This document shows, one piece after another, positions 9,288 through 33,629 of a DNA stretch of 64,000 nucleotides (positions are counted from its first letter, which is position 1; every line of letters starts with the position of its first letter). Location: assembly GCA_003153015.1 (NCBI GenBank), contig PMBS01000254.1:9568-73567 (forward strand), in the 5' to 3' direction. A program made the position numbers and the translations under genes. Source of the stretch: Myxococcales bacterium. GTDB lineage: Bacteria > Myxococcota_A > Polyangia > Fen-1088. The notes below the pieces were generated by a model. The model searched no databases and was not told the origin of the DNA. It worked only from the letters and a program-made list of their open reading frames with translations.

Positions 9288-9552
9288 GGGTCTGGTCCTT
9301 TCGCTTGACCAAGTATTGGCCAACTCCCCAGTCACGCTCGTGGCACCTCGGTGACAAGTCGGAAGAGAAACCGGGTTGGCGTCCTCCACCTTGCTCTGGT
9401 GGCGAGGGCGAAAGCGTCCGAACCGGGTCTCGCAAATGTCGCGCAACGGTAACGCTGTGTTCACGGAGACCCCGCTATGTTGGGTTTGGGTTCCACAGCT
9501 ACTACCCAACCTGCGAACCACAGTCAACCGAACCCGTGATTTGGAGGAGGAA

Positions 9553-12408: not shown

Positions 12409-12436
12409 CTGTGACAATTCTGTGAACTCTTGTGAT
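12409..12436. promoter_or_regulatory. candidate Pho-box-like element: three ~11-bp phased direct repeats (CTGTGACaatt CTGTGAActct TGTGAT)
   Basis: Lies 35-60 bp upstream of the ppk1 start on the coding side; its reverse complement contains TTGTCAC/AGTTCAC half-sites resembling the E. coli CTGTCAT Pho box. Confidence 0.45.
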
Positions 12437-13969: not shown

Positions 13970-14014
13970 GGTGCAAGGCTCCGGCTTGGCTAATCGCCCC
14001 TTGAGGCGTTGTAC

Positions 14015-14043
14015 GAAATTATGACAGGGCAACGTGACAAACC
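14015..14043. promoter_or_regulatory. candidate Pho box (minus-strand reading TTGTTGC-TTGTCAC-CTGTCATaatttc)
   Basis: CTGTCAT is identical to the E. coli half-site; half-sites at 11- and 13-bp spacing. Sits in the divergent region between ppx (minus) and response regulator 2 (plus). Confidence 0.45.
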
Positions 14044-14163
14044 AGCAACAATCGGACGGGCCGGCTCGTCTCCCTTTCCCCATGACCGTCCGCGAGATGG
14101 GAGAAGCACGAAAGTTTCAGCAACTTCACCGTCCCGTAACCTTGGGGCCGTAGCCTGTCGGCA

Positions 14164-14985: not shown

Positions 14986-15774
14986 TCACCTGCGCCGGGC
15001 GACGCTGCCCGGCGGATCGTGGCGACGGACCCGCTGCTGTGGCTTGGCCAGGCGATAGCCTACGCCATGCACTGTCTGGATCATCCACGCCATGGGCCCG
15101 AACTTGTCGCGGATGCGTTTGATATGGGTGTCGAGGGTACGACTGGAAACATCAGGGCGGTAGCCCCAGACCTCAGTCAGCAACTCGCGGCGCGTGTGCA
15201 TCTTGCCCGGCGAACTGGCCATGTATGCCAGCAGGCGCATTTCTTGGGCGCTGAAGCTGATCTCTTCACCCGCAAGAAAAACCCGGTGGCCTGCTTGATC
15301 GATCTCCAATGGTCCCAGGGTCAGGCGCTCGTCAGTCGTATGCTGGCCCCGGAGTTCGCCGACAGCAGCCAGCTCGGCGGTTTGGCGCGCCCGCAGCCGC
15401 ACCTCGATGCGCAACATCAGCTCGCGCAGGCTGAACGGCTTGGTCACAAAGTCGTCCGCTCCAACCTCGAAACCTGCTACCCGGTCACTTTCTCCGGTCT
15501 TGGCGGTCAGAATGACCACGGCTGGTTGCCGGGCCACCGCGCTGGCACGGATTCGACGACAAACCTCGAAGCCGGAGCAATCGGGCAGGCTGATGTCCAG
15601 CAAGACCAGGTCAGGGCACAAATCGGGAAACGCACGCATGGCCTCTTCACCAGTGCCGACGACCTGCACCTTGTAACCCGCAGCCTCGAGAATGTACGAC
15701 AGCGAACCGCTCAGATTAGGCTCGTCTTGCACGACGAGAATGCGCACGGGCGCCTGGGATGAGATCCCGAGCAT
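14986..15774 (-). CDS. OmpR/PhoB-family response regulator (paralog 3)
   Basis: Convergent with paralog 2; same domain architecture; start placed at MLGISSQ (internal Met). Confidence 0.8.
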   Translation of the reverse strand: MLGISSQAPVRILVVQDEPNLSGSLSYILEAAGYKVQVVGTGEEAMRAFPDLCPDLVLLDISLPDCSGFEVCRRIRASAVARQPAVVILTAKTGESDRVAGFEVGADDFVTKPFSLRELMLRIEVRLRARQTAELAAVGELRGQHTTDERLTLGPLEIDQAGHRVFLAGEEISFSAQEMRLLAYMASSPGKMHTRRELLTEVWGYRPDVSSRTLDTHIKRIRDKFGPMAWMIQTVHGVGYRLAKPQQRVRRHDPPGSVARRR

Positions 15775-15901
15775 GCGGCGACCATATTCGGGGTACCATG
15801 GAGATCGTGTTACAGCACTGCAACGTGATTGTGAATGCAATGTGGAGCCCATGGGCGTCATCGAGCGAATGCGTACCGCGCCATAGGAATGCGACGCGCG
15901 A

Positions 15902-16849
15902 CTACTGCGTCACCTTGATCTTGTATTGCTTGAAAGTCGTGCCACCGCGTGAATCGCGCAGCACGAGCCACAGGTAGACCGGCATTGCCGTATCCGGGGC
16001 CTTCCAGGTATTGCTGGTCGAGATTGCGACTTCGGTGCCTGCCACACCCGTGCGGTCGTGTTCAAACGACCCGGACGTGGCAAACCAGGACATGTACAAA
16101 CTCTCGGTTTGATCCACCAGCGCGTCGCCGCTCGGGTTGAGGACCGGGAACGTCTCGGCCGAGCTCGCCGTGAACCTTGCCTCGAAGACGACCGATTCGC
16201 CCGGCGACACGATCTGGGTGTCGAAATCGAGGTTCAGCCGGGAACCGTCGGCCCTGACAACATCGGTGGAGGCGATGCCGGGATCGTTGTTCGGTTGGTA
16301 CCGCGTGTTGTATTCGTCGACAATAGTCGTTGGAGCATTGGCCAGATTGCAGGCAATTCGCTCAAAGGCAAATCCGGTCAGGCTGCCGGTCGCTAGATCA
16401 GGGAATTTCACCCGAACCGGCAAGTAGTAGCCGCCGGTGCTATCCGGATCGCGCGGTCTGATCGCCGGCTGTCCCGCCGAAGGCGGGGGCGCAATGGGGC
16501 CGAACAGGGTGCAGGCGTTGGTGAGGACCGGGGTCTCGAAGGTCTGTCCCGTGGTCGGGCCAGGCGCGGGAGGATTGCAGGCACTGGCCACCGAATTGTT
16601 CTCGGCCGGGGGTTTGGGTGTCTCGCAAACATCCCAGCCTGCGGTGGCGTCGGTCACAGTTCCCGCGGGCGATGCAAGCAAGAAGGAGTACACCACGTCG
16701 GCCCCTGGCTTGGACTCGGGGGGCTCGCCCCTCACCGCGAGAAGAGCGTAGTCGGTGACGAGCGAGGGAGCCTGCCCCACCTCGGGCTTGCACCCGAGCA
16801 CGGTGCTGGCAAGAGCGACCACAAGAAGAGGTTGTTTTGCGTAGGCCAT
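15902..16849 (-). CDS. lipoprotein of unknown function (paralog of 53535..54557)
   Basis: Signal peptide with lipobox (ASTVLGC); start abuts the stop of the upstream TonB-dependent receptor; shared motifs GGYYLPVRV and WYATAGSFEHD with the cassette-B paralog. Confidence 0.7.
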   Translation of the reverse strand: MAYAKQPLLVVALASTVLGCKPEVGQAPSLVTDYALLAVRGEPPESKPGADVVYSFLLASPAGTVTDATAGWDVCETPKPPAENNSVASACNPPAPGPTTGQTFETPVLTNACTLFGPIAPPPSAGQPAIRPRDPDSTGGYYLPVRVKFPDLATGSLTGFAFERIACNLANAPTTIVDEYNTRYQPNNDPGIASTDVVRADGSRLNLDFDTQIVSPGESVVFEARFTASSAETFPVLNPSGDALVDQTESLYMSWFATSGSFEHDRTGVAGTEVAISTSNTWKAPDTAMPVYLWLVLRDSRGGTTFKQYKIKVTQ

Positions 16850-19501
16850 CTAGAACTCCAGGCGTGCACCCGCAACCGCAAGTATCGGCAGTCCGATGAT
16901 GTAGCTTCGCTGCTTGTAGTCCTGACTGTAAATAGTCTCCTCGGGATTCTTGCGATTAGTAACGTTTTGCACGTCGATGAACATGCTCAGCTTCGTCCGC
17001 CGCATGACGAATGCCTTTTCGCCACGGAGATCCAGTTGGTAGAAGGCCGGGATGCGAATGGAGTTGTGCGCTCCGAAGACGGGCTCATAGTAGCCGTTTC
17101 TGCCGAGATAGCTGTCCACCACCGGTGTGCGCGGCATCCCGCTGGAGTAGCGAAAACGTCCACCTACCACGAAGTCCCTGCCCAACTCGTAGCTGGCGAG
17201 GAGAGCCAGCACGTGGGTCTGGTCATAGTCGAACAAGCGAAATGCCTGATCAGGATGATCGCGGCGCTCGCTGCGTGACAGGGTGTAGGTCGCCCAGCCG
17301 AAGAAGCCCTTGAACAGTTCCTGTCGAAGCAGAACTTGGAGTCCAAACACGCGACCGGTTCCATCCTGGGCCAGCGCCTGTCCCACTGGCGGGGATGGAC
17401 TTTCGCTGCGTGAGACGAGGTCGTACAGTTTCTTGTAGAAACCCACGGATTCCAAGGTCAAGGTCGGACGCAGCTTGAACGAGAACCCACCGGTCAGGTG
17501 TACGGCATATGACCCCACAATTGACGGGTTGCCGAATACCGGGGACATGTCCGCGGGATCGGGCGGCTGGCCGTATACTCCCGCGCCGCTGGTGAGGGTG
17601 AGCTTGGGGGTAGGTCGCCACGCGATCTGCAAACGCGGATTGGGAAAGTTGCGCAGCACCGGGACGCTAATCGGATTGGGGGGAGCGTCGAGCCGAGAAT
17701 AGCCGACCGGGGGCGCGATATTGCTGAACGGAAGGCGATGATCCCCTTCGATCCAAGTGGGTTCGAAACGCAAGCCCGGCGTCACGGTCCAGTTGCCGAG
17801 CTTGATGTCCACCGTGGCATAGCTGGCCACGCTGAAGACAGTCACGTTCCAGTTGTCGGATGCGGTCTCGGATGGGGGGCGTTGGCCGAAGACGACGATG
17901 TCTCCTTCCCGGGGCGGCTGGTTCACTGAACCGTTCCGGCTGAGTTGGACTTGCTGTCCCTGTACATCCATGCCGACCAAGAGCACCGCCGTCGGATGAA
18001 TGCGCCGGCGCAGACTTCCGCGCAAAGCGTAGGACAAGGTCTGCGTGTCGAGCTGCGTGCTTTCATCGCCGAAAGTGTCTCGCTCGGCATTGTGGTCGAT
18101 GCCCATCGAGGGAGTCACGCGCACGCTGGAGCCATCGTCGAACAAGCGGCTGTAGCTGACGAAGATGCGGCGAAAAGAGGTGTCATTGTTCTGCGTGCGC
18201 AGATCTGCGGGGTCGCTGGCCGGAATGGTTCGTTGCAGGTGATCGTCCGACGCGAGAAAAGTCGCGGCGATCTCCTCGTCCTTGCGCAGGCTCAGGGAGG
18301 CCCGCGCCTGGTAGTCGTCGTAGCGCGGGATAGGAAATGAGTCGCCGATGTCGGCCGAGGTGACTCCCGATATCACGCGGTCGAGGTAGCTGATACGTCC
18401 AGCCACGGCCAAGCGCAGCCGTGGGGTCACTGCGGCTGACACCTCGGCCGAGGTGTCCATGATGTCGCCGGCAACATAGCCGTGCACGCCGGACGGGGGA
18501 AGCTGGCCGAGTTCGATGCGCACCAGACCGCCCAGCCCGCGTCCGTAGTCGGCGCCGTACGCCCCGGGCGAGAGATCGATGGACTTGACCAGATCGGAGT
18601 TCACCGTCGAGCGTAGACCGCCCATGTGGTACAGGCTGGGAATCTCCACCCCCTCAACCACCACCCTGGTCTCCTTGGGCGAGGAGCCCCAGACCACAAG
18701 CTGGCCTGAACCGAAGCTGGCGCGTCCCACCCCCGGCAGGTTCTGCACAACCTTGAGGGTGTCGCCCTGCGTGCCAGGAACCTTGCGCGCCTCTTCGGTG
18801 CGGATGCGGGTTTCCACCGCCTCCTTCTTGATGCGGGCCGCACGTACGATGACTTCCTCGTCGACGTCTTCCTCCCTCTGTTCGACGTAGTACTTCATGG
18901 TGCGCTTCTGGCTCGGCCGGATGGTTTCGTCGGTCAGCACAGTGACGAGCCGCGGATGTCGGATCTCAACCTTGTGCGCGCCAGGAGGCAGATCAGTGAA
19001 CGAGAAGGCCCCGGCCGCATCGGTCTTGGTGGCCAAGTCCAGGTCCTTGATACGCACGGTCACATCGGCCATGGGCTGCTTTTTGAATCGATCCAGAACC
19101 ACGCCCTCGAAGTTCACCTGTGGTCCGAGTGACACCATCTTGGTCACAATGGTGAAGTCGTAGCGGTAAGTGATCTTGACGGGAATGGCTTGTCCTCCGG
19201 CCTCCGCCGGGGTGAAGAGGAACTGCCGGGCAGCAGCAACCGCGGCGCTGTCGAAATCGGACCCGCCGCTTTCGACAACCTCGACCCCGCCCACCTTGCC
19301 GTCGTCCCCCACCTCGATCGAAAGCAGCACGCGTGCGGTGATGCCGGCGTCGTGCTTGTCCTTGGGGTATTCGGCCGGGACGAAATGAATCAGGCGCGGG
19401 GGCTTGGTGATGGCGACCGTTTCATCGGCACGCGAAGGCCCCGGGCAGACCGGGAACCCGGCGCCCACCAGAGCGGCCACAAAGACAAGGCGGTGGTGCA
19501 A
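16850..19501 (-). CDS. TonB-dependent receptor-like outer-membrane protein with N-terminal TonB-C-like domain and carboxypeptidase-regulatory-like domain
   Basis: 883 aa with signal peptide. The TonB_C signature (AEYPKDK...ARVLLSIEVGDDGKV...SGGSDFDSAAVAAARQFLFTPAE...PVKITYRYDF) is followed by a CarboxypepD_reg-like beta-sandwich, a plug-domain motif (GTQGDTLKVVQNLPGVGR) and a long barrel ending in C-terminal Phe. Confidence 0.8.
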   Translation of the reverse strand: MHHRLVFVAALVGAGFPVCPGPSRADETVAITKPPRLIHFVPAEYPKDKHDAGITARVLLSIEVGDDGKVGGVEVVESGGSDFDSAAVAAARQFLFTPAEAGGQAIPVKITYRYDFTIVTKMVSLGPQVNFEGVVLDRFKKQPMADVTVRIKDLDLATKTDAAGAFSFTDLPPGAHKVEIRHPRLVTVLTDETIRPSQKRTMKYYVEQREEDVDEEVIVRAARIKKEAVETRIRTEEARKVPGTQGDTLKVVQNLPGVGRASFGSGQLVVWGSSPKETRVVVEGVEIPSLYHMGGLRSTVNSDLVKSIDLSPGAYGADYGRGLGGLVRIELGQLPPSGVHGYVAGDIMDTSAEVSAAVTPRLRLAVAGRISYLDRVISGVTSADIGDSFPIPRYDDYQARASLSLRKDEEIAATFLASDDHLQRTIPASDPADLRTQNNDTSFRRIFVSYSRLFDDGSSVRVTPSMGIDHNAERDTFGDESTQLDTQTLSYALRGSLRRRIHPTAVLLVGMDVQGQQVQLSRNGSVNQPPREGDIVVFGQRPPSETASDNWNVTVFSVASYATVDIKLGNWTVTPGLRFEPTWIEGDHRLPFSNIAPPVGYSRLDAPPNPISVPVLRNFPNPRLQIAWRPTPKLTLTSGAGVYGQPPDPADMSPVFGNPSIVGSYAVHLTGGFSFKLRPTLTLESVGFYKKLYDLVSRSESPSPPVGQALAQDGTGRVFGLQVLLRQELFKGFFGWATYTLSRSERRDHPDQAFRLFDYDQTHVLALLASYELGRDFVVGGRFRYSSGMPRTPVVDSYLGRNGYYEPVFGAHNSIRIPAFYQLDLRGEKAFVMRRTKLSMFIDVQNVTNRKNPEETIYSQDYKQRSYIIGLPILAVAGARLEF

Positions 19502-20236
19502 TCAATCCCCCAGCTCAAAACGGCGGGCCAAGACATAGGTCCCTCCCGCGACCGGCTTGCCACAGGCCATGGCTGGCCGGAAGCGCCACTGTTTGACCGC
19601 GGCCACCGCGGCCGCGTCGAGTTCGGGGGAGACGCTGGCCAGCACCTCGACCGCCATCACCGAGCCGTCCGCGCCGACCACGATCTTCAGCTTGAGCTTG
19701 CCTTCGATCCCCTCGGAGCGTGCTGCAGCCGTGTACTCGATCTCGGTCTTGAATACGGGCTCAGGCTTGGAAGGCTCGTCCGTGCAGCGCTCCTCGATGT
19801 TCGGCCCTGCCCCCAGCTCCTGGCGCTGGCGGTGGTGATGCGCCTCGGGTTCGAAGGTGGCCACCTTGGTGGGCGCCACGGCCTGGGGGGCCCGCACGAT
19901 CGGGATTGCCACGGCATCGCCGATATCCTCGTTGCTCATGGCGATCTCGGTCGGCATGACCATGGTAGCCACCTTGGCTGCCGCAACTGGGGCCGCGACC
20001 GGCATGAGCTTGGGCGCGGCCGCGAGTTTCTGCTCCTTCGGCTTCGCATCCACCTTGGCCAGCTTGGGCGGAGCCTTGGGCTTGAGCGGCGCCTCCTTCT
20101 TCTTCTTCTTCTTGGCCTCCTCCTGCAACTGCACAACGTAGGTCTTGCCCGAGGCGCGGTGTTGCGATGCCGTGAGCAGGGCAAACGCAAACCCGGCGTG
20201 AATGACCATCGAAATAGCGACCGTGGACTTCTTCAC
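19502..20236 (-). CDS. tonB: TonB family energy transducer
   Basis: N-terminal TM, Lys/Pro/Ala-rich spacer, C-terminal TonB_C domain. Confidence 0.75.
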   Translation of the reverse strand: MKKSTVAISMVIHAGFAFALLTASQHRASGKTYVVQLQEEAKKKKKKEAPLKPKAPPKLAKVDAKPKEQKLAAAPKLMPVAAPVAAAKVATMVMPTEIAMSNEDIGDAVAIPIVRAPQAVAPTKVATFEPEAHHHRQRQELGAGPNIEERCTDEPSKPEPVFKTEIEYTAAARSEGIEGKLKLKIVVGADGSVMAVEVLASVSPELDAAAVAAVKQWRFRPAMACGKPVAGGTYVLARRFELGD

Positions 20237-20280: not shown

Positions 20281-20700
20281 CTACTCGCCTCCCACCTGCA
20301 TGACGTTGATTGCGAACTTTGTGACACCGGCGACTTTGGCGAGATCCATGACGTGAACCACCTGGCCGTGGGCCGCCTCTTTGTCAGCGCTGATGACCAC
20401 GCTGATTTCCGGATCGGCCGCCACCACCTCCTTCATGTGGCCTCCCAATTCTTGTTCGGTGACCGGCTGTTCGTTCCAGCGCAGCTCTCCATTCTTGAAC
20501 AACTGCACGGTGTTGGGCTTTTCCGCGGTGCCGTCGCTCATCTTTGCCCTGGGCAGGCTGACCTTCAGGGTCTGCGCCACGATGTATGTCGACGCCACCA
20601 TCAGGATGACCAACAACACCAGGCATACATCGACCAGCGGGGTCACATTGATGGCGGAAATCGTCTTGGCCCGCCCCACACCTGCCATCGTGCCAGCCAT
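20281..20700 (-). CDS. exbD: biopolymer transport protein ExbD/TolR
   Basis: 139 aa with single TM (INVTPLVDVCLVLLVILMV) and ExbD periplasmic domain. Confidence 0.8.
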   Translation of the reverse strand: MAGTMAGVGRAKTISAINVTPLVDVCLVLLVILMVASTYIVAQTLKVSLPRAKMSDGTAEKPNTVQLFKNGELRWNEQPVTEQELGGHMKEVVAADPEISVVISADKEAAHGQVVHVMDLAKVAGVTKFAINVMQVGGE

Positions 20701-21437
20701 CAGCCATTCACCTCGGCCGGGCGCAGCCTGGGAGACTCCCCGATCTCATCCAGCGCGGCAGCTGATGCCTTGTGCGTGTTCTTCGGGTTCCTGGTCGACT
20801 TCATGACCGCCAAGACCTGATTGGCGAGGGCGGCCGAGTTTTCTTCGATGTCATTGCACTTCTTCTGGAACAGGTTGAAGGCGACCACCGCGGGAATGGC
20901 GACCAAGATGCCGATGGCGGTGGCGATGAGGGCCTCGGAGATGCCGCTCATCACGTTGCCCATGCCGCCCGCGCCACCCGCGGCGGCCATGTTGGCCGAG
21001 GCAGCCCCCAATTCCTTGAAAGCCGCAACCACGCCGAGCACAGTGCCGAACAGGCCAATGAATGGGGCGTTGTTGCCCAGGGTGCCGAGGAATATGAGCC
21101 CGCTCTCGAAGACCTTGCGGCGTTGGCGGATGCCTTTCTGCACGATCTCCTGCAGGGAATCGGGACCGTCGGCGTAGTAGTCCAGGGCGTCGCGCAGGAT
21201 CTCGGCCTCGACGGCCCGCATTTCCTCCAGCTCCCGCTTGGCACCGGCCACATCCCCGGCGCGCAGTCGCTTAGCCAACGCATTGCCGGTCGCGATCATG
21301 TCCAGGCGCCGCTTGCGGAAGTACCACCAGCGCTCGATCACCACGCCGACCGAATAGACCGACAGCGCGAGCAGAATGTAGAGGACCGCGGCAGCCCCGG
21401 TTTGGGCAACAAATACCAGTTTGTGCATCAGCAGCAT
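20700..21437 (-). CDS. exbB: MotA/TolQ/ExbB proton-channel protein
   Basis: 245 aa, three TM segments, conserved C-terminal TM2/3 region (GLIFLGTLGNNAPFIGLFGTVLGV...SEALIATAIGILVAIPAV). Confidence 0.8.
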   Translation of the reverse strand: MLLMHKLVFVAQTGAAAVLYILLALSVYSVGVVIERWWYFRKRRLDMIATGNALAKRLRAGDVAGAKRELEEMRAVEAEILRDALDYYADGPDSLQEIVQKGIRQRRKVFESGLIFLGTLGNNAPFIGLFGTVLGVVAAFKELGAASANMAAAGGAGGMGNVMSGISEALIATAIGILVAIPAVVAFNLFQKKCNDIEENSAALANQVLAVMKSTRNPKNTHKASAAALDEIGESPRLRPAEVNG

Positions 21438-21453: not shown

Positions 21454-22374
21454 TTAGTAGTCAAACACCTGCGCCTGTACTCCCGCCCCCTGTCCGTGGG
21501 GAAAACGTGTGTCGAGATCGGTCGATTGTCCGGAAGCTTGCAACAGGGGGTCGACCCCGTTGTTGGTGAAGACGCGAACCAGCCAGCGCGCGGTGGTCTC
21601 GGCGCACAGAGAGAAAGTGTCGACGCGCACGATGTAGCGTCCATTGGGAGCCGTGGTGGGGAAGATCACATTCTCCGCCCGGCGCCCGTCGATCACACAC
21701 GTGCTGTTGGAGTCGAAATCGAGGTAGCCCGCCTGCTTTCCGTCGTCGACACTCGCGCCGACTGTCCCGAGCGGCAGACCAGATGGCTTTCGCGACCAGA
21801 TCTCGTTTACCCCTGCATCCCCATCGCTGGGCAACTGCACGTGCAGGTCGAGATCGGCTTCAGTGTCCCAATCCAGGCTGATGACCAGGGCGCCCGCGGT
21901 CCGCGGCTGGTCCATGGTCATCGGTTGCAACCTCGCCGGCCCCACCTGTCCATCGCGCGTGGTGGCGCGAAAGGCCAGAAACAGATTGCCGGCGTCCCCT
22001 CCAGAGGGCGTTCGCGGGGAGAAGGACGCAGAGAATGAAAAGGTGTAGTTGCCGGTGACGTTATAGTCGATGTCCTGCACGGGCACGACCCAGTGACCCA
22101 CGTCGCCCTGCAACCCAACGAGCACCGCGGTCGAGTTGGGGCCGACGCTGCCCGATATCTTCTTGTTGGCAACGCCCGGGAATAGGTTGGGGTTTTGCAT
22201 CGTTATATTTGCGACTGCTGGCGCAGGATCGCGATCGATGGTGTCAATGGGACCAGGAATGTATTGCGCGCCCTGGATCCTGAACAGCGCCTGCTGGCCA
22301 GAACTCGGGTCAGTGCCGGAACAGCCCCCGCAGAGCAGTCCAGCCGCAAGAAGACTGAGCGCGAGAGGGCGCAT
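21454..22374 (-). CDS. lipoprotein of unknown function (paralog of 49919..50860)
   Basis: Lipobox LLCGGC; shares motifs (ALVISLDWD..DLDLHVQ, YIVRVD.FSLC) with the cassette-B paralog. Confidence 0.65.
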   Translation of the reverse strand: MRPLALSLLAAGLLCGGCSGTDPSSGQQALFRIQGAQYIPGPIDTIDRDPAPAVANITMQNPNLFPGVANKKISGSVGPNSTAVLVGLQGDVGHWVVPVQDIDYNVTGNYTFSFSASFSPRTPSGGDAGNLFLAFRATTRDGQVGPARLQPMTMDQPRTAGALVISLDWDTEADLDLHVQLPSDGDAGVNEIWSRKPSGLPLGTVGASVDDGKQAGYLDFDSNSTCVIDGRRAENVIFPTTAPNGRYIVRVDTFSLCAETTARWLVRVFTNNGVDPLLQASGQSTDLDTRFPHGQGAGVQAQVFDY

Positions 22375-24056
22375 CAGAAGGCGACCTCCGTGCGCAGGGT
22401 GAACGCGTTGTTCTTCAAATCCGCCGGCATGCCACTGGCATTCCGGCCCTGGTTATCGAACACCCAGTCGTACTGGGCCACCAGCCGGCCGGACAGCGCA
22501 CCCGCCTTTCCGATCAACGCAACTGCCGCCGACACCGTCGAAATCGCCTGGCTGGAGGGAACCAGCACCCCTGCCTGGCGGTCGGTGCTGTCCAAGTCGG
22601 GATTGTAGTAGTCGTAGCGCAATCCCAGCTTGAAATGCCGGCCCAGCTCCTGGACAGCAGCCACGTAGTAGCCCCACTCGCGCAGATCGCGACCGAGCGG
22701 ACCATAGGGATCGGCAATCAAGAATCCCCGATCCAGATTGTTGGCACGGGCAAGCTCGGCGTAAATCGTTGTGCTGGCGTTGTTCCAATAGCGCAGCGAA
22801 ACCAGAGCATCTACGCCAATCGCATTGCGGCTGAAGTTCTGCGATGGCTGACCCGAGGTTCCTGGCGACACGATCAACTCGTTGGAATCGTACCGGCCGT
22901 TCTCGTTGAGATCCTGCCAAGTCAAAGTCGGTTTTGTGGGAGGCGCTCCCTTGTGGAATCCCTTGCCGGTCAGGCCCGAGAATCCCGCCTGGACCGACAC
23001 CTCGTCCGAGATTTGGGACACAATCCCAAGTCGCCCTGTGATGTCTTTGGCCTGGTTGGGATCGCGCACGGGGAAGGTGTTCTCGCCTAGCGGCTCGCCG
23101 TTCTGCACCGCTAGGGCATAGCGAACGAAGCGCCAGCCGCCTGACAGTCGCAGCCCCAGGTCGTACTCGCCCGGGAAAAGCGCCCTCACAAAGGCGCTGC
23201 GTTCGGCGAAGAGCCTGTCACGATCGCTCTGCAGCACCTCGAAGCCGAACGGAATCTTGAAAAGTCCTGCGGTCAGGCCCACCAGCGGGATGGAACCACC
23301 CGGCCATTTGACCGTGGCCTCCACATTCATGGGCCGCACCTGGGCACCGTTGACTGTGTTGGCGTCGATCTCGACGACTCCGGCGAAATACCTCTGGTCC
23401 ACCGCCGTGCTCAGGCGCGCGCGACGGAGCAGGAATCGATTGTCATTCAGCGGGGCGCCGGTGGAGGTATTGAGCTGGTCTTCTGAAGTCTGCCTTACGT
23501 TGAGATCGGCCTGCACAAAGCCAGAAATCGTGAGCCATTCTAGTCTTGTCAGGCGAGGGTCGGCCTTCACCGCAACTTCGACTTCAGCGCGCGCGTTGGC
23601 CTGGGCACGCGCCTCGGCTGCCTTGCGCTCCGCCTGCTCCTCGGTCAGCTTGCGCTGGAATTCCTCGCGCAGGCTGGCCAGCTCGGCGCGTTGCTGCGCC
23701 AACTGGGCGGCAATGTCCTCCGTCTCTCTGCGAGGCTCGTCGCTGGTTGTCGGAGGGTTGTCGGCCGGAACCGGATCCGGCACCTGGGCAAAAGGGGGAG
23801 TCTGCCCAAGTGCCGGTCTCGCAAGCGCGAGCGGTGCCCCAGCGCAAAGCAGTCCCAGAACCAGGGCCCGCTTCTTTGGCCAGCCGAGTCGTAGCCAGAT
23901 GGGCGCGGCTGGCTTGCGGAAAACGCTAGGGTACACCGTTGCTTCTCTCGAATCTACATGGCCGAGCAGCTTGGATAGGCGATCGGCGGATTGGGACCGG
24001 GATCGAGCGCGGATACAGTGGACGGCACGGGCGCGTTGATGATGGCAACGTGGCAT
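22374..24056 (-). CDS. outer-membrane beta-barrel porin-like protein with N-terminal coiled-coil (possibly phosphate-selective porin O/P family); start uncertain
   Basis: Charged coiled-coil region followed by alternating beta-strand pattern, ending in terminal Phe (LRTEVAF). Paralog of 48336..49919. The annotated ATG overlaps the upstream small lipoprotein by ~100 nt, so the true start is probably a non-ATG codon near 23956. Confidence 0.55.
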   Translation of the reverse strand: MPRCHHQRARAVHCIRARSRSQSADRLSKLLGHVDSREATVYPSVFRKPAAPIWLRLGWPKKRALVLGLLCAGAPLALARPALGQTPPFAQVPDPVPADNPPTTSDEPRRETEDIAAQLAQQRAELASLREEFQRKLTEEQAERKAAEARAQANARAEVEVAVKADPRLTRLEWLTISGFVQADLNVRQTSEDQLNTSTGAPLNDNRFLLRRARLSTAVDQRYFAGVVEIDANTVNGAQVRPMNVEATVKWPGGSIPLVGLTAGLFKIPFGFEVLQSDRDRLFAERSAFVRALFPGEYDLGLRLSGGWRFVRYALAVQNGEPLGENTFPVRDPNQAKDITGRLGIVSQISDEVSVQAGFSGLTGKGFHKGAPPTKPTLTWQDLNENGRYDSNELIVSPGTSGQPSQNFSRNAIGVDALVSLRYWNNASTTIYAELARANNLDRGFLIADPYGPLGRDLREWGYYVAAVQELGRHFKLGLRYDYYNPDLDSTDRQAGVLVPSSQAISTVSAAVALIGKAGALSGRLVAQYDWVFDNQGRNASGMPADLKNNAFTLRTEVAF

Positions 24057-24385
24057 TGATCCACAGTCAGGCCGGTGCAGATGTCGACTGTAGGCCCGCC
24101 GTCGTTGGGAGTGACGGCGGGAACGTCCGTCCCGGTGACCATGTCAGAAGCGCCGTCTGGCGGGCTGATGGAGGGGCCGTCCACGCTCGCATCCGCCACA
24201 GCGCCACCCATTCCACCCGCGGCATCAATGCCAGCTCCACCGGAGCCAGAAACGCCGCCCGTGGCGATCGCACCGCCGCTGCCGATGCTCGCGACGTCTG
24301 TGTTATTGGTGCTGCTGCAAGCAACCCAGCCGGCCAGTACCAGTACCAGTGCCAGTGCCAGTGTAGAAGTCTTATAGAGATTCAT
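23954..24385 (-). CDS. small Gly/Ala-rich lipoprotein
   Basis: Signal peptide with lipobox (LAGWVAC); same position as the 88-aa lipoprotein 48073..48336 in cassette B. Confidence 0.5.
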   Translation of the reverse strand: MNLYKTSTLALALVLVLAGWVACSSTNNTDVASIGSGGAIATGGVSGSGGAGIDAAGGMGGAVADASVDGPSISPPDGASDMVTGTDVPAVTPNDGGPTVDICTGLTVDQCHVAIINAPVPSTVSALDPGPNPPIAYPSCSAM

Positions 24386-25665
24386 TGTGCATTTCCTCCA
24401 ATAGGCGACTCACAATAACCGGTCTGGCAGCGGGTGCCAGGCACCGTCGTACAGTCAGCATCGCTGGTACAATGGGTGGTGCAGGTGCCAGGCGCCGACT
24501 GCACCAACTTGGCCGCCTCGAAGGCGCAGGTGCAGGAAACCTGTGGGTGGTAGGGCGAGAACTTGCCGCCGTCCTTGTCGATCTTGACCTTCATGGCGCA
24601 CTGGGGAACGTCGCCCCCGAGCGCGACCGTATTGACATACTTGATGTTCTGGGTGTCGGTGGGGTCGATGGGCACAGCACCGGTCAGCCAGTCGATAACC
24701 AATTTCGCATTGGCCGCGGGCGCCGGGGCCCCGCCGTCGGTCGCGACCAACGGAACGAAGAAATGCAGGGGGCCCTGGATCATGTAGTGGCCGTCGCGAA
24801 CATTCTTCAGGTCAGTGGCAATGGCAGTCGAGTCGGGGTAGTAGGCCTTGGTCTGCCCGATGCCGCGAAAGGCAACCGCGTTGAGATTGGCCCTCTGGCC
24901 CGCGTAGATGTCCGCGGCCACGAAGCCGATCCCATTTTGCTGATAGTTCGGATTCAGGAGAGATTGCACCATGACGCCGCTTGATCCGTTTGGAGCGCCC
25001 TTGAATGCGCTTTCCGGGACGCCGATGTTCCTGGCAACGAGAATCTGGGTGCCTGAGGTCTGGCTACGCTGCTGAATGGCGTTCTCGTTGGCGAAAGGGG
25101 GAACCCCGCTTTGGGTGCCGCAGCCCCAGATGGCAGCGGCCTGTTGGGAGGAGAGTGCCGTGGTGGTGTAGTTGGCCTTGGGCACGACGATGAGCATCGC
25201 CTGCTCCGGACCGGCCCATTCCCCGATGTTGGCGGGCTTGTCAACGTTCTGGCATGAGGAAAAGGCGACGTCGGAAACCCCGATGGCGGCAAAGGTATTG
25301 TTAGATAGGGTACATGAGTTTTGCACCACCTTGGTGCTATCCGTGGGGTCGGCAGTGTAGTAGTGGGGCGTGGTCGACAGCGGACTCAGGACTGGATTGT
25401 CCGGAGAGGGAGAAACCGCGAGCACGCCGTTACACGAAGAGATGGGGGAATAGATGATGGAGATCCCCTGCTTCGCTTTGATCTGCACCGCGAGCTGGCC
25501 GAGGATGGGCTCGAAAGCGCTGCTGCCCGCCATGTAGACGGGGTTGCCCAGCACGGTGGTGTCGGCGCAAGCCACCGTGGTTGAGCCCTGGGCCAGGGCG
25601 GTGGACGCAGCAAGGAGAAATCCTGCCGCGCCCGTCAAAGCTACGATCTGTTTTCTGTAGGTCAT
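24382..25665 (-). CDS. divergent PstS-like (PBP_like_2) substrate-binding protein with Cys-rich C-terminal extension
   Basis: Signal peptide; periplasmic-binding-fold motifs (YMAGSSAFEPIL, ISIIY, GVSDVAFSS); Cys-rich tail (CTCAFEAAKL..CTTHCTSDADCTT..CQTGYC). Paralog of 46781..48046. Confidence 0.6.
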   Translation of the reverse strand: MTYRKQIVALTGAAGFLLAASTALAQGSTTVACADTTVLGNPVYMAGSSAFEPILGQLAVQIKAKQGISIIYSPISSCNGVLAVSPSPDNPVLSPLSTTPHYYTADPTDSTKVVQNSCTLSNNTFAAIGVSDVAFSSCQNVDKPANIGEWAGPEQAMLIVVPKANYTTTALSSQQAAAIWGCGTQSGVPPFANENAIQQRSQTSGTQILVARNIGVPESAFKGAPNGSSGVMVQSLLNPNYQQNGIGFVAADIYAGQRANLNAVAFRGIGQTKAYYPDSTAIATDLKNVRDGHYMIQGPLHFFVPLVATDGGAPAPAANAKLVIDWLTGAVPIDPTDTQNIKYVNTVALGGDVPQCAMKVKIDKDGGKFSPYHPQVSCTCAFEAAKLVQSAPGTCTTHCTSDADCTTVPGTRCQTGYCESPIGGNAQ

Positions 25666-25742
25666 GGCAATCCTGCCTCCATTTCAGACCCGGCAAACCC
25701 GGGCCGCGGTGGGACCATAGCGAGATACCCGGCGAGCGACTG

Positions 25743-25781
25743 CGACGGATTTGCGTCGGATTTGTGACGGAAGCGCAACAG
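25743..25781. promoter_or_regulatory. 11-bp phased direct repeats (minus-strand GTCACAAATCC GACGCAAATCC GTCGC)
   Basis: Lies ~80-115 bp upstream of the cassette-A PstS-like gene start, in the divergent region shared with the small MYXO-CTERM ORF. Confidence 0.4.
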
Positions 25782-27052: not shown

Positions 27053-27080
27053 CGTGACTTGCCTGTCACATAGTTGTAAC
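27053..27080. promoter_or_regulatory. candidate Pho box (cGTGACttgc CTGTCACatag TTGTAACgaat)
   Basis: Half-sites CTGTCAC and TTGTAAC spaced exactly 11 bp, 70-90 bp upstream of the SBBP lipoprotein gene at 27152; closely resembles the element upstream of pstS (61848). Confidence 0.5.
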
Positions 27081-27151: not shown

Positions 27152-29170
27152 GTGCAACCTCACAAAGCGATGCTTTCGCGACCTTCTCCACTTCACCACA
27201 TTGTTGCGACGGCTGGTCTATGTCTTCTCGGCGCGGCAAGTTGTAGCAAGAACAGCGGCTCGCCGGTCGTCGATGCTGCCTTCGGGCCAGACGCGGGTCT
27301 CGTTGACGCTCCGACCTGCCCCGCGTCCTGCGACGACAACAACCCGTGCACGGTGGATAGCTGCGATCCCACCACGTACCAGTGCGTTCACGCCAACGTT
27401 CCCGACGGTACGAGCTGCCAAGGCAAGCCCTGCACGACGAACAGCATCTGCCAGGGCGGGCTCTGCCTCGATGGACCGTTCAAGAAATGCACGGTGGCGA
27501 GCGATCAATGCCACGTGGCCGGCCCGTGTAGCCCCAAGACTGGCGACTGCACCAGCGAAAATGCACCCGAAGGGAAGACTTGCGACGATGGCAACTTGTG
27601 CACCTACGCCGACCAGTGTAAGGCCGGCGTGTGCGTCGGGACTCCGCTCGTGTGCCCCACCACCTGCGACCCGGCCACGGGTTCTTGCCCAGGCGGTTTC
27701 CCCACGGCGCTCCTAGATCGGTTGATTGACAACGCATCTTGGCCGGTCAACAGTGGCGCGATTCTCAGATCACCTGACGGACAGATCTTTGCTGCCGGGG
27801 CCTATGTGAAACAGATCGATCTTGGGTCGGGTCCCATTGTCCAGAACCAAGATCCAACTTTCGGGGCCGCCGACACAGACGTCTTTCTTGCTAGGTTGGA
27901 TCCGTCCGCGCTCAAGGCCACTTGGGCCGTGACGTTCGTCGGGCCCAGGGATCAGTCCGTGACCTCCTTCGCGGTGGACGGAGCCGGCCACTTGGGCGTG
28001 ATAGGTCCCCTGATGGGTTCCATCACGGTGGCCGGCAATGAACTGGAGGCGCTGAGGCCCGGGGACCAGTACATCCTGGGCGCCAGCACCGCGGATGGCA
28101 GTGGCTTGTGGGTGCGGCGGGTGAACCTGCAGAGCGGGACGGAAGACAGCCGAACCGTTGGCCTTCGCGCGATAGCGGGCGACCCCAATGGCAGCTCCTT
28201 CGTGGTTTGTGGGACGGTAGCGTGCGCAACCGGACCCATGCGGGGGGATGCTGGTCCTGATCCCAATCCGGCCAAAGACTTTTCGTCTTCGCTTGCCTGC
28301 AAGGGCGGTACTGATTTGGTTGTGGCGCGTATTGATAGCAGCACGCCCGACGCTGGCACCAACACCGGCAATGGGACGATCGTCTGGGCGGATGAGGTGG
28401 GCGGCATCAATGATGAGTATTGTGGAACGCTGACCATGGATGCCCAATCGAACACCTACGTCGTCGGCACGTATCGATTCGGAAGCGAAGTGGCGTTCGG
28501 AAGCACAACCCTGCCGATGGTGGACTCCGCAGGCTCGACGGCGTGGATGTACCTGGCCAAGCTGGGTCCCGACAACAAGTGGATTTGGGCGAAGCGCATT
28601 GGCTCGGGCGCGCAGTCCATCACACCTACCGCTATTCTCGCTGTTGACAATGTCGACGGCGCCAGCAGTGACGTCATCGTGGCTGGAACGATCGAAGTAG
28701 GGTCCCTGTTGTTTTCGACGGACAACGTGGGCGTTGTGCTGGACTCGCCCAATTTCATGGCCCGGTTCGATGGGTCGACGGGGGAGGAGCTTCGTTGGGT
28801 CAAAGGGATGGCCGTGGTCGTGAACAGTATGGCGGCGGACGGGGGGCACATCCTGGCTACCGGCAGCTATAGCGCCGCCGGCAACCTGGGGTCGGCTTCC
28901 TTGTCCCCGCCCTTGAAAACAGGTGCGTTCATCGCGGAGATTGATGGCAGCAACGGCGCGGTCGTGGCCGCCAAGGGGTACGGGTCGTCGCAGTACCTCA
29001 ACAGCGGCGCTGGCGTTGTTGCGATCACCGGTGCGGCTGGGTCGAGTGAGACCGGTAGCGTCTTGCTGCTCTCCTACGCGTCGCAAGTGGATCTGGGACC
29101 TCCCATCGGCGTCTTGCGAGCCACCGCGACCGCAAGCACGGCCAGTTGCCTGGCCAGGATCGCCCCATGA
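27152..29170 (+). CDS. lipoprotein with Cys-rich N-terminal module and SBBP beta-propeller repeats
   Basis: Lipobox LLGAASC. Cys-rich module (CPASCDDNNPCTVDSC...CDDGNLCT) also occurs in the 42949 gene. Repeated D.{2}GN.Y.{2}G motifs (DAQSNTYVVGTY etc.) typical of SBBP repeats. Confidence 0.7.
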   Translation: MQPHKAMLSRPSPLHHIVATAGLCLLGAASCSKNSGSPVVDAAFGPDAGLVDAPTCPASCDDNNPCTVDSCDPTTYQCVHANVPDGTSCQGKPCTTNSICQGGLCLDGPFKKCTVASDQCHVAGPCSPKTGDCTSENAPEGKTCDDGNLCTYADQCKAGVCVGTPLVCPTTCDPATGSCPGGFPTALLDRLIDNASWPVNSGAILRSPDGQIFAAGAYVKQIDLGSGPIVQNQDPTFGAADTDVFLARLDPSALKATWAVTFVGPRDQSVTSFAVDGAGHLGVIGPLMGSITVAGNELEALRPGDQYILGASTADGSGLWVRRVNLQSGTEDSRTVGLRAIAGDPNGSSFVVCGTVACATGPMRGDAGPDPNPAKDFSSSLACKGGTDLVVARIDSSTPDAGTNTGNGTIVWADEVGGINDEYCGTLTMDAQSNTYVVGTYRFGSEVAFGSTTLPMVDSAGSTAWMYLAKLGPDNKWIWAKRIGSGAQSITPTAILAVDNVDGASSDVIVAGTIEVGSLLFSTDNVGVVLDSPNFMARFDGSTGEELRWVKGMAVVVNSMAADGGHILATGSYSAAGNLGSASLSPPLKTGAFIAEIDGSNGAVVAAKGYGSSQYLNSGAGVVAITGAAGSSETGSVLLLSYASQVDLGPPIGVLRATATASTASCLARIAP

Positions 29171-31298: not shown

Positions 31299-33629
31299 GT
31301 GGCATCCAGCAAATCGCCACTTCACCATGGCCGCTTACCGGCGTCCATCATCGTCTTCTTGGGGCTGGCCGCTTCTTGCAAGAGCACGCCCCAAGAAAAG
31401 ATCGATGCCGGTCAGCGCAGGTATTGCAGCGCTTCGCTGGACGGGGGATCGGACGTCCGTGTCCGCGAGAGTGGAACAACCGACTTGTCCACCGATTCGC
31501 CTGACCTGGGCTCGGGCAACGAGGTCAGCACTCCGGATTTGTCGCCCCCGGCAGTCGACGGTCGCGCAGCGGACTCGGCTGAGGCGGGCGGTGGCGACAG
31601 CCGCGGTGGCGGGATAGATCTGGCCTTGTCGGATGCGCGGGACCGGGCGAATGAGGTGGGCGGCACGGGTGGCAGCACCGGCGAAGGCGGCAGTACTGGC
31701 ACGGGAGGCAGTGGTGGCGAGGGTGGCAGTACTGCCACTGGTGGCACCAGCGGCAGCGGTGGTACCGGCGATGCGCGTGGGCTCGACGCACCCTCGATCA
31801 GCGGCGGCGATGGCGGCGGCGACGTTTCCGTTGACCGCGGTTCGCCAGACCTGGCTCGGGATGCGCCGGCGGCCGATGTGGGCAGCGTCTATGACGTCTA
31901 TGACGTGCAAAGTGTCTACGACGCCTACCCGGATGCACCGGCAGATGCGCCCATGGCCGCTGATGTGGGCGCGGTCACGGACGCGCCCACAGTCGTGGAT
32001 CTCGGTCCCGACGCCGCCCCTGACGGCGCTGCCCTGACCTGCAGCACCGGCGGGGTGAGTTGGGCCAAGGCCTGGGACCCCCGCACGGTCAGCTTGATCA
32101 GGTCGGCGGTGTCTCCCGCCGGGATCCCGTGGGCTACCGGCTATTTTAGTGCAGCCACGGACTTTGGCACGGGAACACCGCTGCCGTCTTCCGCCAGCGG
32201 GGACACCGATGCATTCTTGGTCAAGCTGGACCCTTTGTCGGGGCTGGCCACTCAGGCCTTCAGCTTCAGCGATCCCAGCGGCAGAGACCAGATTGGGACC
32301 GGAGTAGCGGTCGCCCAGCCGGGAAACGTGGTGGTCACCGGCAATTACTACGGTGAAATCGACTTCACAGCGGTTGGCAGCGGCGATACCGGCACCAGCG
32401 GTGTTGACTATCTGGCGAAATCATCTGTCGTCCAGGCAGCCGCCATGAACTTCTACATTGTGGTGGATGGCGCGTCGTCTGGTCAGTACGTGACGCCTAT
32501 CAAGGCGCACAACATCGACGTGGGCACGGGCGCGATCGTGGCCGTCGCGTCCAACCCCAGCCAGAATAGCGTCGCTTTTTGCGGCAAGACCAGCAGGCTT
32601 GTCGATGCCTACACCACGGGCGCCAGCAACACTGGGTTGCGCACCGCTGGCAACTATGGCACGGGCGGCACCGGCCTTGCCGCTGCCACCTACGGCGGGA
32701 GCATGGACATCGTGGTAGCCGTGATCGACGCGAGCAACGACCCGAACAGCGTCGGCAAAGTCATCTGGGGCAGGCAGTTTGGTGGCGCAGGCGACCAGGC
32801 CTGTGAGTCCGTGGCCATGGACAGCGCCGGCAACGTGGCCATTGCCGGTAGCTACAATGGGACCTTGTTCTTCGACCCGACGAATGCGGCTCTCCAACTC
32901 GACGCTGGGAGCACCAGCGGCTCTCTCGCGCTTCCGTTCGTGGCCGTTCTGGACCCGAACGGGACGCCAGTACACGCCGCGAGCTGGGGCACCAGCGGCC
33001 TCTCGGATGTCAATGGCATAGCGTTTGATAGCAGCTCGCCAGCCAATATCGTCATCGGGGGATCCCTCGGTGCCACCATCACCATGACCATCAACTCCCA
33101 GCCGGTGCAGGTTGTCGACCTGGGCAAGACAGACGGCTTTGTGGCCAAGCTGAACTCCAGCCTGGTTCCGCAGTGGGCCATGTCGTTCGGCGACGCCGCC
33201 TACGATCAGAAGGTCCACGCTTTGGCCCTGTCGTCGAGCGGCAACGTGTTCATCGGTGGAAACTTTGAGGGCACGCTCAACGGGCTCAACGGTCTGACTT
33301 CAAACGGCAACGCCACGTACGACGCCTTCAGCGCGGAGCTCTCTGGGGCTGACGGCTCCGTGGTCTGCGCGCAACCGTACGGGGATGCCGAAGGGACACA
33401 GGATGTCTTTGCGCTTACTGTGGCCAGTGCCGCGACCGGGCCTTTGGCCGACTCTGTGATGATCGGCGGAAGTTTCAGCAACACCATCGCGCTGGGCTCC
33501 GCCACCCTGTGGAGTCCAGGCAACGTCTGCACTGTGCAAGCGGACTGCAAGAGCGGCGCGAGCTGTAGCAACGGGCACTGCGCAAGTGCCGGCACTAGCA
33601 GGAGCTTCATAGCCCGCCTTGGCCCCTAG
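31299..33629 (+). CDS. lipoprotein with Gly/Ser/Thr-rich linker and SBBP beta-propeller repeats
   Basis: Lipobox LAASC; C-terminal ~430 aa ~80% identical to the C-terminus of 42949..46467, with near-identical nucleotide stretches. Confidence 0.7.
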   Translation: MASSKSPLHHGRLPASIIVFLGLAASCKSTPQEKIDAGQRRYCSASLDGGSDVRVRESGTTDLSTDSPDLGSGNEVSTPDLSPPAVDGRAADSAEAGGGDSRGGGIDLALSDARDRANEVGGTGGSTGEGGSTGTGGSGGEGGSTATGGTSGSGGTGDARGLDAPSISGGDGGGDVSVDRGSPDLARDAPAADVGSVYDVYDVQSVYDAYPDAPADAPMAADVGAVTDAPTVVDLGPDAAPDGAALTCSTGGVSWAKAWDPRTVSLIRSAVSPAGIPWATGYFSAATDFGTGTPLPSSASGDTDAFLVKLDPLSGLATQAFSFSDPSGRDQIGTGVAVAQPGNVVVTGNYYGEIDFTAVGSGDTGTSGVDYLAKSSVVQAAAMNFYIVVDGASSGQYVTPIKAHNIDVGTGAIVAVASNPSQNSVAFCGKTSRLVDAYTTGASNTGLRTAGNYGTGGTGLAAATYGGSMDIVVAVIDASNDPNSVGKVIWGRQFGGAGDQACESVAMDSAGNVAIAGSYNGTLFFDPTNAALQLDAGSTSGSLALPFVAVLDPNGTPVHAASWGTSGLSDVNGIAFDSSSPANIVIGGSLGATITMTINSQPVQVVDLGKTDGFVAKLNSSLVPQWAMSFGDAAYDQKVHALALSSSGNVFIGGNFEGTLNGLNGLTSNGNATYDAFSAELSGADGSVVCAQPYGDAEGTQDVFALTVASAATGPLADSVMIGGSFSNTIALGSATLWSPGNVCTVQADCKSGASCSNGHCASAGTSRSFIARLGP

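Follow-up and report, generated by a model that had tools for sequence, protein, structure and literature searches.

A 64,000-nucleotide stretch of contig PMBS01000254.1 from a Myxococcales bacterium (assembly GCA_003153015.1; hereafter the window, whose positions serve as coordinates throughout) encodes three cysteine (Cys)-rich proteins that resemble the phosphate-binding protein PstS and lie among genes for envelope transport: P1 (24382-25665, minus strand), P2 (46781-48046, plus strand) and P3 (40871-42694, plus strand). We propose, with a probability of about one half, that P1 and P3 are the phosphate-capturing receptors of two Pho-controlled, TonB-energised envelope scavenging modules, and that P2 is a re-specialised paralogue. 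In Gram-negative bacteria, phosphate is known to cross the outer membrane by passive diffusion through OprP/PhoE-type porins, after which it is captured in the periplasm by PstS. The window presents a contrasting arrangement: a conserved operon, duplicated within the genome, couples binders of the PstS fold to a porin, an energised TonB-dependent transporter with its own Ton motor, and a PhoB-like regulator. If the binders act at the outer membrane, they would represent a new phosphorus-scavenging logic for phosphorus-poor, metal-rich, acidic soils, and would also provide a natural set of highly disulfide-stabilised phosphate binders of potential value for phosphate sensing and recovery.

The three open reading frames had been predicted, in an earlier reading of the window, to encode exported proteins, and this was confirmed: their start codons are consistent with the N-termini of orthologues in homologue alignments, and direct reading of the sequences reveals a Sec-type signal peptide on each of P1 (...ALAQG), P2 (...LARAQG) and P3 (...AAWAQE), giving predicted mature N-termini of QGSTTVAC..., QGVDCP... 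and QETCPS..., respectively. The proteins are 427, 421 and 607 residues long and contain 13, 15 and 28 Cys, compared to none in the canonical PstS of the window. The gene for the latter (61955-63022, plus strand) matches NF008171 with 441 bits (cutoff 339) and PF12849 with an expect value (E) of 5e-42; the original prediction had both recognized it and regarded P1, P2 and P3 as additional to it, and was correct on both counts. It had also described Cys-rich C-terminal modules that canonical PstS lacks. CxC and CxxxC patterns do occur in the final ~65 residues of P1 and P2 and the final ~113 residues of P3, but Cys residues are not limited to these tails: five of the 13 conserved Cys of P1 belong to the binding-protein core.

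The earlier view of the three proteins as a single set held for two of them. P1 and P2 are 30% identical (E 9e-46) in an alignment that takes in the C-terminal Cys-rich segment, while pairwise BLASTP detected no similarity of P3 to P1, P2 or canonical PstS, and none between P1 and canonical PstS. P1 and P2 are paralogues within one family; P3 belongs to another, which resembles PstS type 2 and has a tail module of a different kind. Profiles of the two families align weakly (hhalign probability 16%, E 0.0016), with the corresponding motifs nonetheless in register. A homologue search with P1 returned 264 matches; none of the 120 listed carried a Pfam domain, and the taxon names given were all Polyangia. 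An exhaustive profile search extended the P1/P2 family to 1,074 cluster representatives (clustered at 50% identity), of which 498 reach E ≤ 1e-30, and the P3 family, likewise from Polyangia, has at least 119 cluster representatives. When one genome per species was scanned, P1 relatives were limited to uncultured Myxococcales, Polyangia, "delta proteobacterium" entries and one metagenome-assembled genome of unclassified Proteobacteria, with fens and soils as the source habitats. No Pfam model matched P1, P2 or P3, although precomputed PF12849 matches exist for some members of a kinase-linked sister branch of the P1/P2 family. Both groups are sizeable protein families without a Pfam model.

Kinship with PstS, the core of the original prediction, was borne out for P1 and P3 by predicted structure and not by the thresholds of curated models, which none of the three proteins reaches (see below). 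The AlphaFold2 model of P1 (predicted local distance difference test score 87.6, predicted template modelling score 0.85) returned only PstS and DING proteins among its best 45 Foldseek matches in the PDB, with a top E of 3.6e-10 and a template modelling score of 0.81 to 4lat; ModA and LysR-type domains ranked after all of these. For P3 (corresponding scores 81.1 and 0.85), the best 24 matches were all phosphate-binding proteins, headed by 1twy (E 3.3e-7), and the P3 family profile matched 4omb, annotated as 'Phosphate binding protein' (E 4.6e-4), with the GSDTL, GS and GPMSR motifs aligned. Aligning the family profiles to a single PstS sequence with hhalign recovered only the N-terminal third of P1 and nothing useful for P3. 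According to these models, P1 and P3 adopt the type II two-lobed binding-protein fold, with PstS as nearest neighbour; P2 would share it as a 30%-identical paralogue of P1.

The residues that coordinate phosphate in Escherichia coli PstS are T10, F11, S38, D56, R135, S139, G140 and T141 (PMC6549937, citing Luecke and Quiocho), and the canonical PstS of the window carries the equivalent motifs GAGATF, IGSGGG, GASDAP and HRSDGSGTT. P1 presents counterparts in AGSSAF (S48/S49), ISSC (S77), GVSDV (D132) and RSQTSGT (R200, S204, G205, T206), the last with the same spacing as in E. coli PstS (Ser, Gly and Thr at +4, +5 and +6 from Arg), and each motif falls at a strand-to-helix junction of the AlphaFold2 model. 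The full canonical pocket is present in 109 of 111 close P1 relatives, in all 117 members of the kinase-linked sister branch and in 94 of 144 diverse 50%-identity representatives; the remaining 50 lack it. In P3, the type-2 positions S79/T81, S104, S130-R131, R255 and S259-G260-T261 (motifs GSDT, GSG, GPMSR and RRDDKSGT) are kept in 106-114 of 114 relatives. Of the P3 motifs quoted in the original prediction, GSG, GIGPMSRNFK and SGTQDTF are near-invariant among these relatives, but GTGSGT lies in a variable stretch.

Conservation of phosphate-site residues, which the original prediction had named as a check, stood for P1 and P3 and broke down in P2, where three positions are replaced; by the criterion the prediction itself had set for its refutation, P2 fails. 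In P2 and nine orthologues, the S38 equivalent has become Asp or Glu accompanied by an inserted Gly, the R135 equivalent Tyr or Phe, and the T141 equivalent Met or Leu, and the subfamily has gained a conserved Arg or Lys at position 207, one residue after the T141 equivalent. The replacements are consistent across the subfamily, a pattern that points to a site that is remodelled and not decayed.

P1 is the first gene of a minus-strand cluster, module A. It is followed by the genes for a small lipoprotein (small lipoprotein A, 23954-24385), a porin-like barrel with an N-terminal coiled coil (22374-23936; PF07396 Porin_O_P, 23.9 bits against a cutoff of 20.9), a 306-residue lipoprotein with a lipobox that is syntenic in all clusters (21454-22374), ExbB (20700-21437; PF01618, 1e-28), ExbD (20281-20700; PF02472, 3e-28), TonB (19502-20236; PF03544, 8e-17), TonB-dependent transporter A (16850-19501), a 315-residue lipoprotein with a mature N-terminus of C-K-P (15902-16849) and a response regulator of the OmpR family (14986-15861) whose best match is PhoB (TIGR02154, 198 bits, E 1e-58). 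Porin_O_P is the sole Pfam family matching the barrel region and is present in 8 of 16 orthologues. Transporter A consists of TonB_C, CarboxypepD_reg and Plug domains and a 22-strand barrel. The CarboxypepD_reg N-terminal extension defines the Oar subclass (PMC6434023), to which transporter A belongs. Its N-terminus is similar to that of MxcH; in both transporters of the window (16850-19501 and 50872-53535), a TonB C-terminal domain is fused ahead of CarboxypepD_reg, as in this myxochelin receptor.

On the plus strand, P3 is at the head of a supercluster that leads into module B. P3, which combines large insertions with its Cys-rich tail, is constantly separated from P2 by the gene for a 1172-residue Cys-rich lipoprotein with SBBP beta-propeller repeats (42949-46467). 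P2, with a P1-type Cys tail, opens module B proper, followed by small lipoprotein B (48073-48336), a second porin-like barrel (48336-49919), a 313-residue lipoprotein (49919-50860) paralogous to the 306-residue protein of module A, a second TonB-dependent transporter with fused TonB_C (50872-53535), and a 340-residue lipoprotein (53535-54557) that is paralogous to the 315-residue protein and shares its C-K-P N-terminus. Module B has no ExbBD or TonB genes of its own. Searches with the 306- and 315-residue lipoproteins found no relatives in Pfam, NCBIfam or the PDB. The start and stop codons of the binding protein, small lipoprotein and porin genes overlap or lie close together in both modules (23936-24385 and 48073-49919): the P1 stop overlaps the start of small lipoprotein A at 24382-24385, and the stop of small lipoprotein B overlaps the porin start at 48336. 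This arrangement suggests translational coupling.

To follow gene order, we compared every window protein with 29 related loci by tblastn. The module A order accompanies a P1-type gene in all loci with at least ~2 kb of flanking sequence except two (L012 and L021), down to 31% protein identity, and the 306/313- and 315/340-residue lipoprotein families are fixed members of every module. The regulator adjoins the cluster in the window and in nine other distinct loci; in three loci (L001, L013 and L022), its gene comes directly after the binding protein and small lipoprotein pair. In L016, module B directly adjoins module A, and the order P3, ~1150-residue protein, P2 and porin is kept in L004-L007. 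Neither cluster contains genes for an ATP-binding cassette permease or ATPase (pstC, pstA or pstB).

The original prediction suggested that the Cys-rich tails could tether the binding proteins to outer-membrane components. The linkage to genes for such components is real, but the role given to the tail was weakened by its distribution. The Cys-knot tail of P1 spans C356-C418, with the family pattern GDVPQCAMKV...CxC...C..C.....C.......CQTGYCE, and its six key Cys are present in 110 of 111 close relatives, 132 of 144 diverse representatives and 117 of 117 members of the sister branch, making the tail at least as conserved as the pocket. In the three sister-branch loci sampled (L030, 4047-8636; L031, 4399-9005; L032, 7148-11200), a Ser/Thr kinase gene is followed by one for a tetratricopeptide repeat (TPR)/PEGA protein and then by a binding protein with canonical pocket and tail, and there is no porin, TonB-dependent transporter or small lipoprotein. 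Since the tail is kept family-wide, including this kinase branch, it is unlikely to be the tether; judged from its sequence distribution, it is better viewed as a structural hallmark of the family than as a device specific to outer-membrane partners. The sister branch may represent a phosphate-sensing kinase pathway. In L032, genes for a PhoX-like protein and a CHAD protein lie nearby.

A profile built from the P1 tail recovers P1 and P2 and gives a weak match to the end of a 776-residue protein (31299-33629; E 0.003), where a similar terminal knot occurs; P3 is not recovered. Residues 395-418 of P1 score 10 bits (E 0.77) against TIGR04201, the 22-residue Myxococcus Cys-rich repeat, for which the cutoff is 25, and two P1 homologues have been labelled 'Cys-rich repeat protein' by the Joint Genome Institute. 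No sorting signal of the MYXO-CTERM type was seen in P1, P2 or P3: each chain stops directly behind its final Cys and lacks a terminal hydrophobic segment.

A better candidate for the tether is the small lipoprotein encoded directly after P1 and P2, whose position and design are kept in nearly all loci: a lipobox, a Gly/Ser or Pro linker, and a domain of ~45 residues with Y-x-x-C placed 1-4 residues from the C-terminus. Small lipoprotein A (143 residues), the candidate tether of P1, has a long Gly/Ser linker and ends in ...YPSC; small lipoprotein B (87 residues) has a Pro-rich linker and a small domain ending in ...YQTC. The same elements also occur fused to the binding protein. In 28 of 124 full-length family representatives (~23%), a long form joins a lipobox to a small Cys domain and, through a Gly/Ser linker, to the binding protein, and nearly all of the 25 long forms inspected have a lipoprotein-type signal; in these, lipobox and linker would take over the tethering role. 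The long forms that were sampled for a separate small lipoprotein come from the kinase-linked branch, in which the short form also lacks one. P1 has an odd number (13) of invariant Cys. In L002 and L024, the C-terminal Cys is the sole post-lipobox Cys of the small lipoprotein and its partner binding protein has 13, and in 12-13 of 16 binding protein/small lipoprotein pairs the two proteins together have an even number of Cys. These counts fit, and hint at, an intermolecular disulfide that would join the two proteins as a covalent heterodimer.

Lipoprotein sorting in Myxococcus xanthus offers a clue to compartment: Lys at position +2 marks proteins of the inner membrane (PMC3222651). The mature N-termini of the small lipoproteins are C-S-S and C-G-S, with no Lys at +2, and those of the 315- and 340-residue lipoproteins are C-K-P. 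By analogy with this rule, which comes from another myxobacterial lineage, the small lipoproteins would reach the outer membrane and the larger pair would stay in the inner membrane.

Regulatory repeats link the modules to phosphorus genes elsewhere in the window. The pattern TGTCAC-N5-TGTCAC, with up to two mismatches, occurs at 15 sites, compared to 5.3 ± 2.4 in shuffled sequences, and 15 was reached by none of 100 shuffles. Fourteen of the sites are intergenic though only 15.7% of the window is (binomial probability ~7e-11, a value inflated by overlapping sites). Enrichment was confined to the gap of five, that is, an 11-bp register; other spacings gave 0-7 sites, at most three of them intergenic. 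Direct repeats in an 11-bp register are the architecture of the Pho box. The Pho-box-like sites lie at 5077, 9330-9356, 10036, 12411-12427 (upstream of ppk), 14034, 27053-27080 (a triple repeat upstream of the gene for a 672-residue lipoprotein, 27152-29170), 40578-40595 (TGTGAC-N5-TGTCAC, plus strand, between a TPR gene and P3), 46680-46696 (minus strand, 85-100 bp upstream of P2), 54600-54650 and 61849-61865 (TGTAAC-N5-TGGCAC, plus strand, 90 bp upstream of pstS). This operator could define the Pho regulon of the lineage. The genes for Ppk1 (10138-12375) and Ppx/GppA (12470-14083) come immediately after module A and the regulator gene in the downstream direction, and one of the Pho-box-like sites precedes ppk by 36 bp; polyphosphate metabolism appears to be tied to the same regulon.

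The region upstream of P1 matches the TGTCAC-N5-TGTCAC pattern only at three or more mismatches. It contains a four-unit 11-bp array, TGTTGC-N5-CGTCAC-N5-CGACGC-N5-CGTCGC (25741-25780, minus strand), located 75 bp before the P1 ATG and followed by TATGGT (25714-25719). The array is the best-conserved block in a footprint of eight orthologous P1 upstream regions and, from its sequence, is a candidate operator of the PhoB/OmpR type. A search for shared k-mers among upstream regions yielded nothing, and a scan of module A for sigma-70 promoters and terminators was uninformative.

The mechanism we envisage starts with phosphate limitation, under which the regulator would activate both modules along with pstS, ppk and the genes for secreted phosphoesterases. 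The binding protein would then capture orthophosphate, or a terminal phosphoryl group, by PstS-like chemistry while the linker lipoprotein holds it at the envelope, possibly via the intermolecular disulfide. Together with the porin and the TonB-energised transporter, it would carry scarce phosphorus through the outer membrane; canonical PstSCAB would finish uptake. The fold, the conserved pocket residues, the gene linkage with the lipoprotein partner and the regulatory repeats are the observed parts of this picture, while the ligand, the tether and its chemistry, the compartment, and what the transporter moves and in which direction are inferred.

A number of results weigh against this proposal. 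At the level of family assignment, P1, P2 and P3 score 23.3, 18 and 15 bits against TIGR02136, for which the cutoff is 206.6 (P1 with a sub-cutoff E of 3e-5), and all three miss the curated Pfam and NCBIfam thresholds. The P1 family profile, compared with all PDB sequences, matches no chain even at E ≤ 10, and the assignment of P1 to PstS rests on fold and motifs for this reason. The pocket register of P1 was set by the spacing of its motifs, by secondary structure and by a transitive alignment that is weak (hhalign, 16%), not by superposition; that of P3 likewise derives from motifs, spacing and secondary structure. P2 lacks three canonical pocket residues. The response regulator falls below the PhoB equivalog cutoff (198 versus 296 bits), and no sensor kinase is adjacent to it; only 3 of 19 P1 orthologues have the strict Pho-box pattern in their upstream region. 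The Cys parity has exceptions (module B of the window, L016B and L028), and the sequences are phylogenetically non-independent. The P1/P2 family also adjoins Ser/Thr kinases where there is no porin or TonB-dependent transporter, and an outer-membrane role is therefore not inherent to the family. Finally, the proposal leaves the substrate of the transporter unexplained, because a porin should suffice for free phosphate, with no need of a TonB-dependent transporter.

It is possible, though on balance unlikely, that P1 and P3 are ordinary extra PstS paralogues, free in the periplasm and feeding canonical PstCAB, with the porin and transporter merely co-regulated; in cyanobacteria and mycobacteria, multiple PstS copies deliver phosphate to PstCAB. 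Such paralogues would have the complete PstS-type pocket and the Sec type I signal peptide without an anchor that P1, P2 and P3 carry, and both the canonical pstS with a Pho-box-like site in the same window and the presence of the family outside porin/transporter contexts agree with this idea. It sits poorly with the strict and apparently translationally coupled order with outer-membrane and Ton genes among relatives 31-50% identical, with 13 invariant Cys and a Cys-knot tail compared to no Cys in the PstS of the same genome, with a linker lipoprotein that is always next and lipid-anchored fusions in 23% of the family, and with the location of pstCAB in neither cluster. A ligand other than orthophosphate is also unlikely overall, and likeliest for P2: another tetrahedral oxyanion, or a phosphorylated macromolecule (a polyphosphate end, phytate, nucleic acid or phospholipid head group) destined for import by the transporter. 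The three swapped pocket residues and the new Arg/Lys 207 of the P2 subfamily speak for it, as do the 50 of 144 representatives without the full pocket, the Ppk/Ppx and secreted phosphoesterase neighbours, and the transporter itself, which implies cargo too bulky for a porin or present at too low a level for one. However, the Asp or Ser-Arg and the Arg-x3-Ser-Gly-Thr positions that define the phosphate site are retained in P1 and P3, and in the fold search for P1, ModA and sulfate-type proteins come after every PstS match.

We consider it improbable that the binding protein is a secreted 'phosphophore', exported by the Oar-type transporter in the manner of PopC, that catches phosphate outside the cell and docks back on the transporter or porin as a hemophore does. 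The transporter has the CarboxypepD_reg domain of the Oar subclass, and Oar is needed for the export of a periplasmic protein (PMC6434023); the genes for binding protein and transporter are closely linked to each other and to a Ton system of their own, and a disulfide-rich protein is well suited to the extracellular space of acidic fen soil. The lipoprotein tether and lipid-anchored long forms nonetheless favour a cell-bound protein, and the sole precedent is PopC with Oar, in which PopC is not a binding protein. Equally speculative is a TonB-powered phosphate shuttle, in which a disulfide-rich PstS-like protein that is either held at the surface by a disulfide to the long-linker lipoprotein or exported by the Oar-type transporter catches phosphate beyond the outer membrane and hands it to the porin/transporter pair. 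If true, such a shuttle would parallel hemophore and SusCD systems on the phosphate side, and the Oar subclass would acquire an import-linked role. Very doubtful is a purely sensory function, in which the binding proteins report external or periplasmic phosphate status to the PhoB-like regulator or to Ser/Thr kinases and take no part in uptake. The adjacency of the regulator in the window and nine distinct loci, directly after the binding protein/lipoprotein pair in three of them, is compatible with such a function, as is the order kinase, TPR/PEGA and binding protein in the sister branch. Against this, the window cluster contains no sensor kinase or membrane transducer, the binding protein gene heads an operon of transport components, and two to three copies per genome with different specialisations are easier to reconcile with transport than with sensing.

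Comparison with known systems places both the familiar and the new features of these modules. P1 shares with E. coli-type PstS (TIGR00975/NF008171; 1ixh, 2abh) the predicted type II fold, Sec export and equivalents of T10, S38, D56 (in GxSD), R135, S139, G140 and T141; it differs in its 13 invariant Cys, its ~65-residue Cys-knot tail and its sub-threshold scores, and in that its gene is located away from pstCAB, at the head of a porin/transporter/Ton operon with a linker lipoprotein next. P3 shares GSDTL, GS, GPMSR and R-x3-SGT-x2-TF with type 2 PstS (TIGR02136/PF12849; 4omb of Pseudomonas aeruginosa, 1twy of Vibrio cholerae), but is double the size, contains 28 Cys, carries large insertions rich in Cys as well as a 113-residue tail, and constantly precedes the ~1150-residue beta-propeller lipoprotein and the P2 module. 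P. aeruginosa PstS is not restricted to the periplasm and also occurs in surface appendages (PMC2242829). DING proteins (PfluDING 4f1u, 2q9t) are PstS-fold phosphate binders encoded outside the classical Pst operon; they occupy ranks 40-45 among the Foldseek matches of P1, under ordinary PstS, and the portion of the DING literature consulted reports neither a Cys-knot tail nor linkage to TonB-dependent transporters (PMC2225411). Membership of P1, P2 or P3 in this group was rejected, as none has the DINGGG N-terminus.

HasA-HasR, SusD-SusC and ElpS-CC0171 each pair a ligand-capturing protein with a co-encoded TonB-dependent transporter, as the modules do with a lipoprotein tether candidate in addition. 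Caulobacter ElpS is secreted, induced by phosphate starvation and encoded next to the transporter CC0171, and the text searched does not describe it as PstS-like (PMC2996285). HasA, SusD and ElpS lack the PstS fold, and only the window modules add a phosphate-type porin and a transporter with both TonB_C and CarboxypepD_reg. M. xanthus Oar, which is needed for export of the periplasmic protease PopC (PMC6434023), shares with the window transporters the CarboxypepD_reg extension and an own Ton system; the latter differ in the TonB_C domain in front and in their phosphorus-themed operon. For OprP/OprO (PF07396), the match on the barrel of the 560-residue window porin is above the gathering score but covers only ~100 residues, and the window porin has a long coiled-coil N-terminus and no sequence link to solved OprP. 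A search of the full-text literature returned no paper joining PstS, TonB-dependent transport and myxobacteria, or describing a Cys-rich PstS in such a setting. The closest precedents are the Pho-induced ElpS/transporter pair of Caulobacter (PMC2996285) and PstS and DING proteins that Pseudomonas places outside the cell (PMC2242829, PMC2225411). The fold and chemistry are known; the architecture and system context are new, and so far confined to uncultured Polyangia.

Beyond the modules, the window contains no tRNA genes and encodes two further phosphorus-related enzymes, a PafA-like type I phosphodiesterase (6988-8892) and a PKD-metallophosphoesterase (55295-58192). It also encodes three large Cys-rich lipoproteins (27152-29170, 31299-33629 and 42949-46467), two with SBBP repeats and one with a Dictyostelium-type Cys repeat. 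All three end in a similar motif (...LARIAP, ...FIARLGP and ...FLARLIP) that may be a C-terminal sorting signal. Relatives of the 1172-residue protein are encoded upstream of P1 orthologues in many loci.

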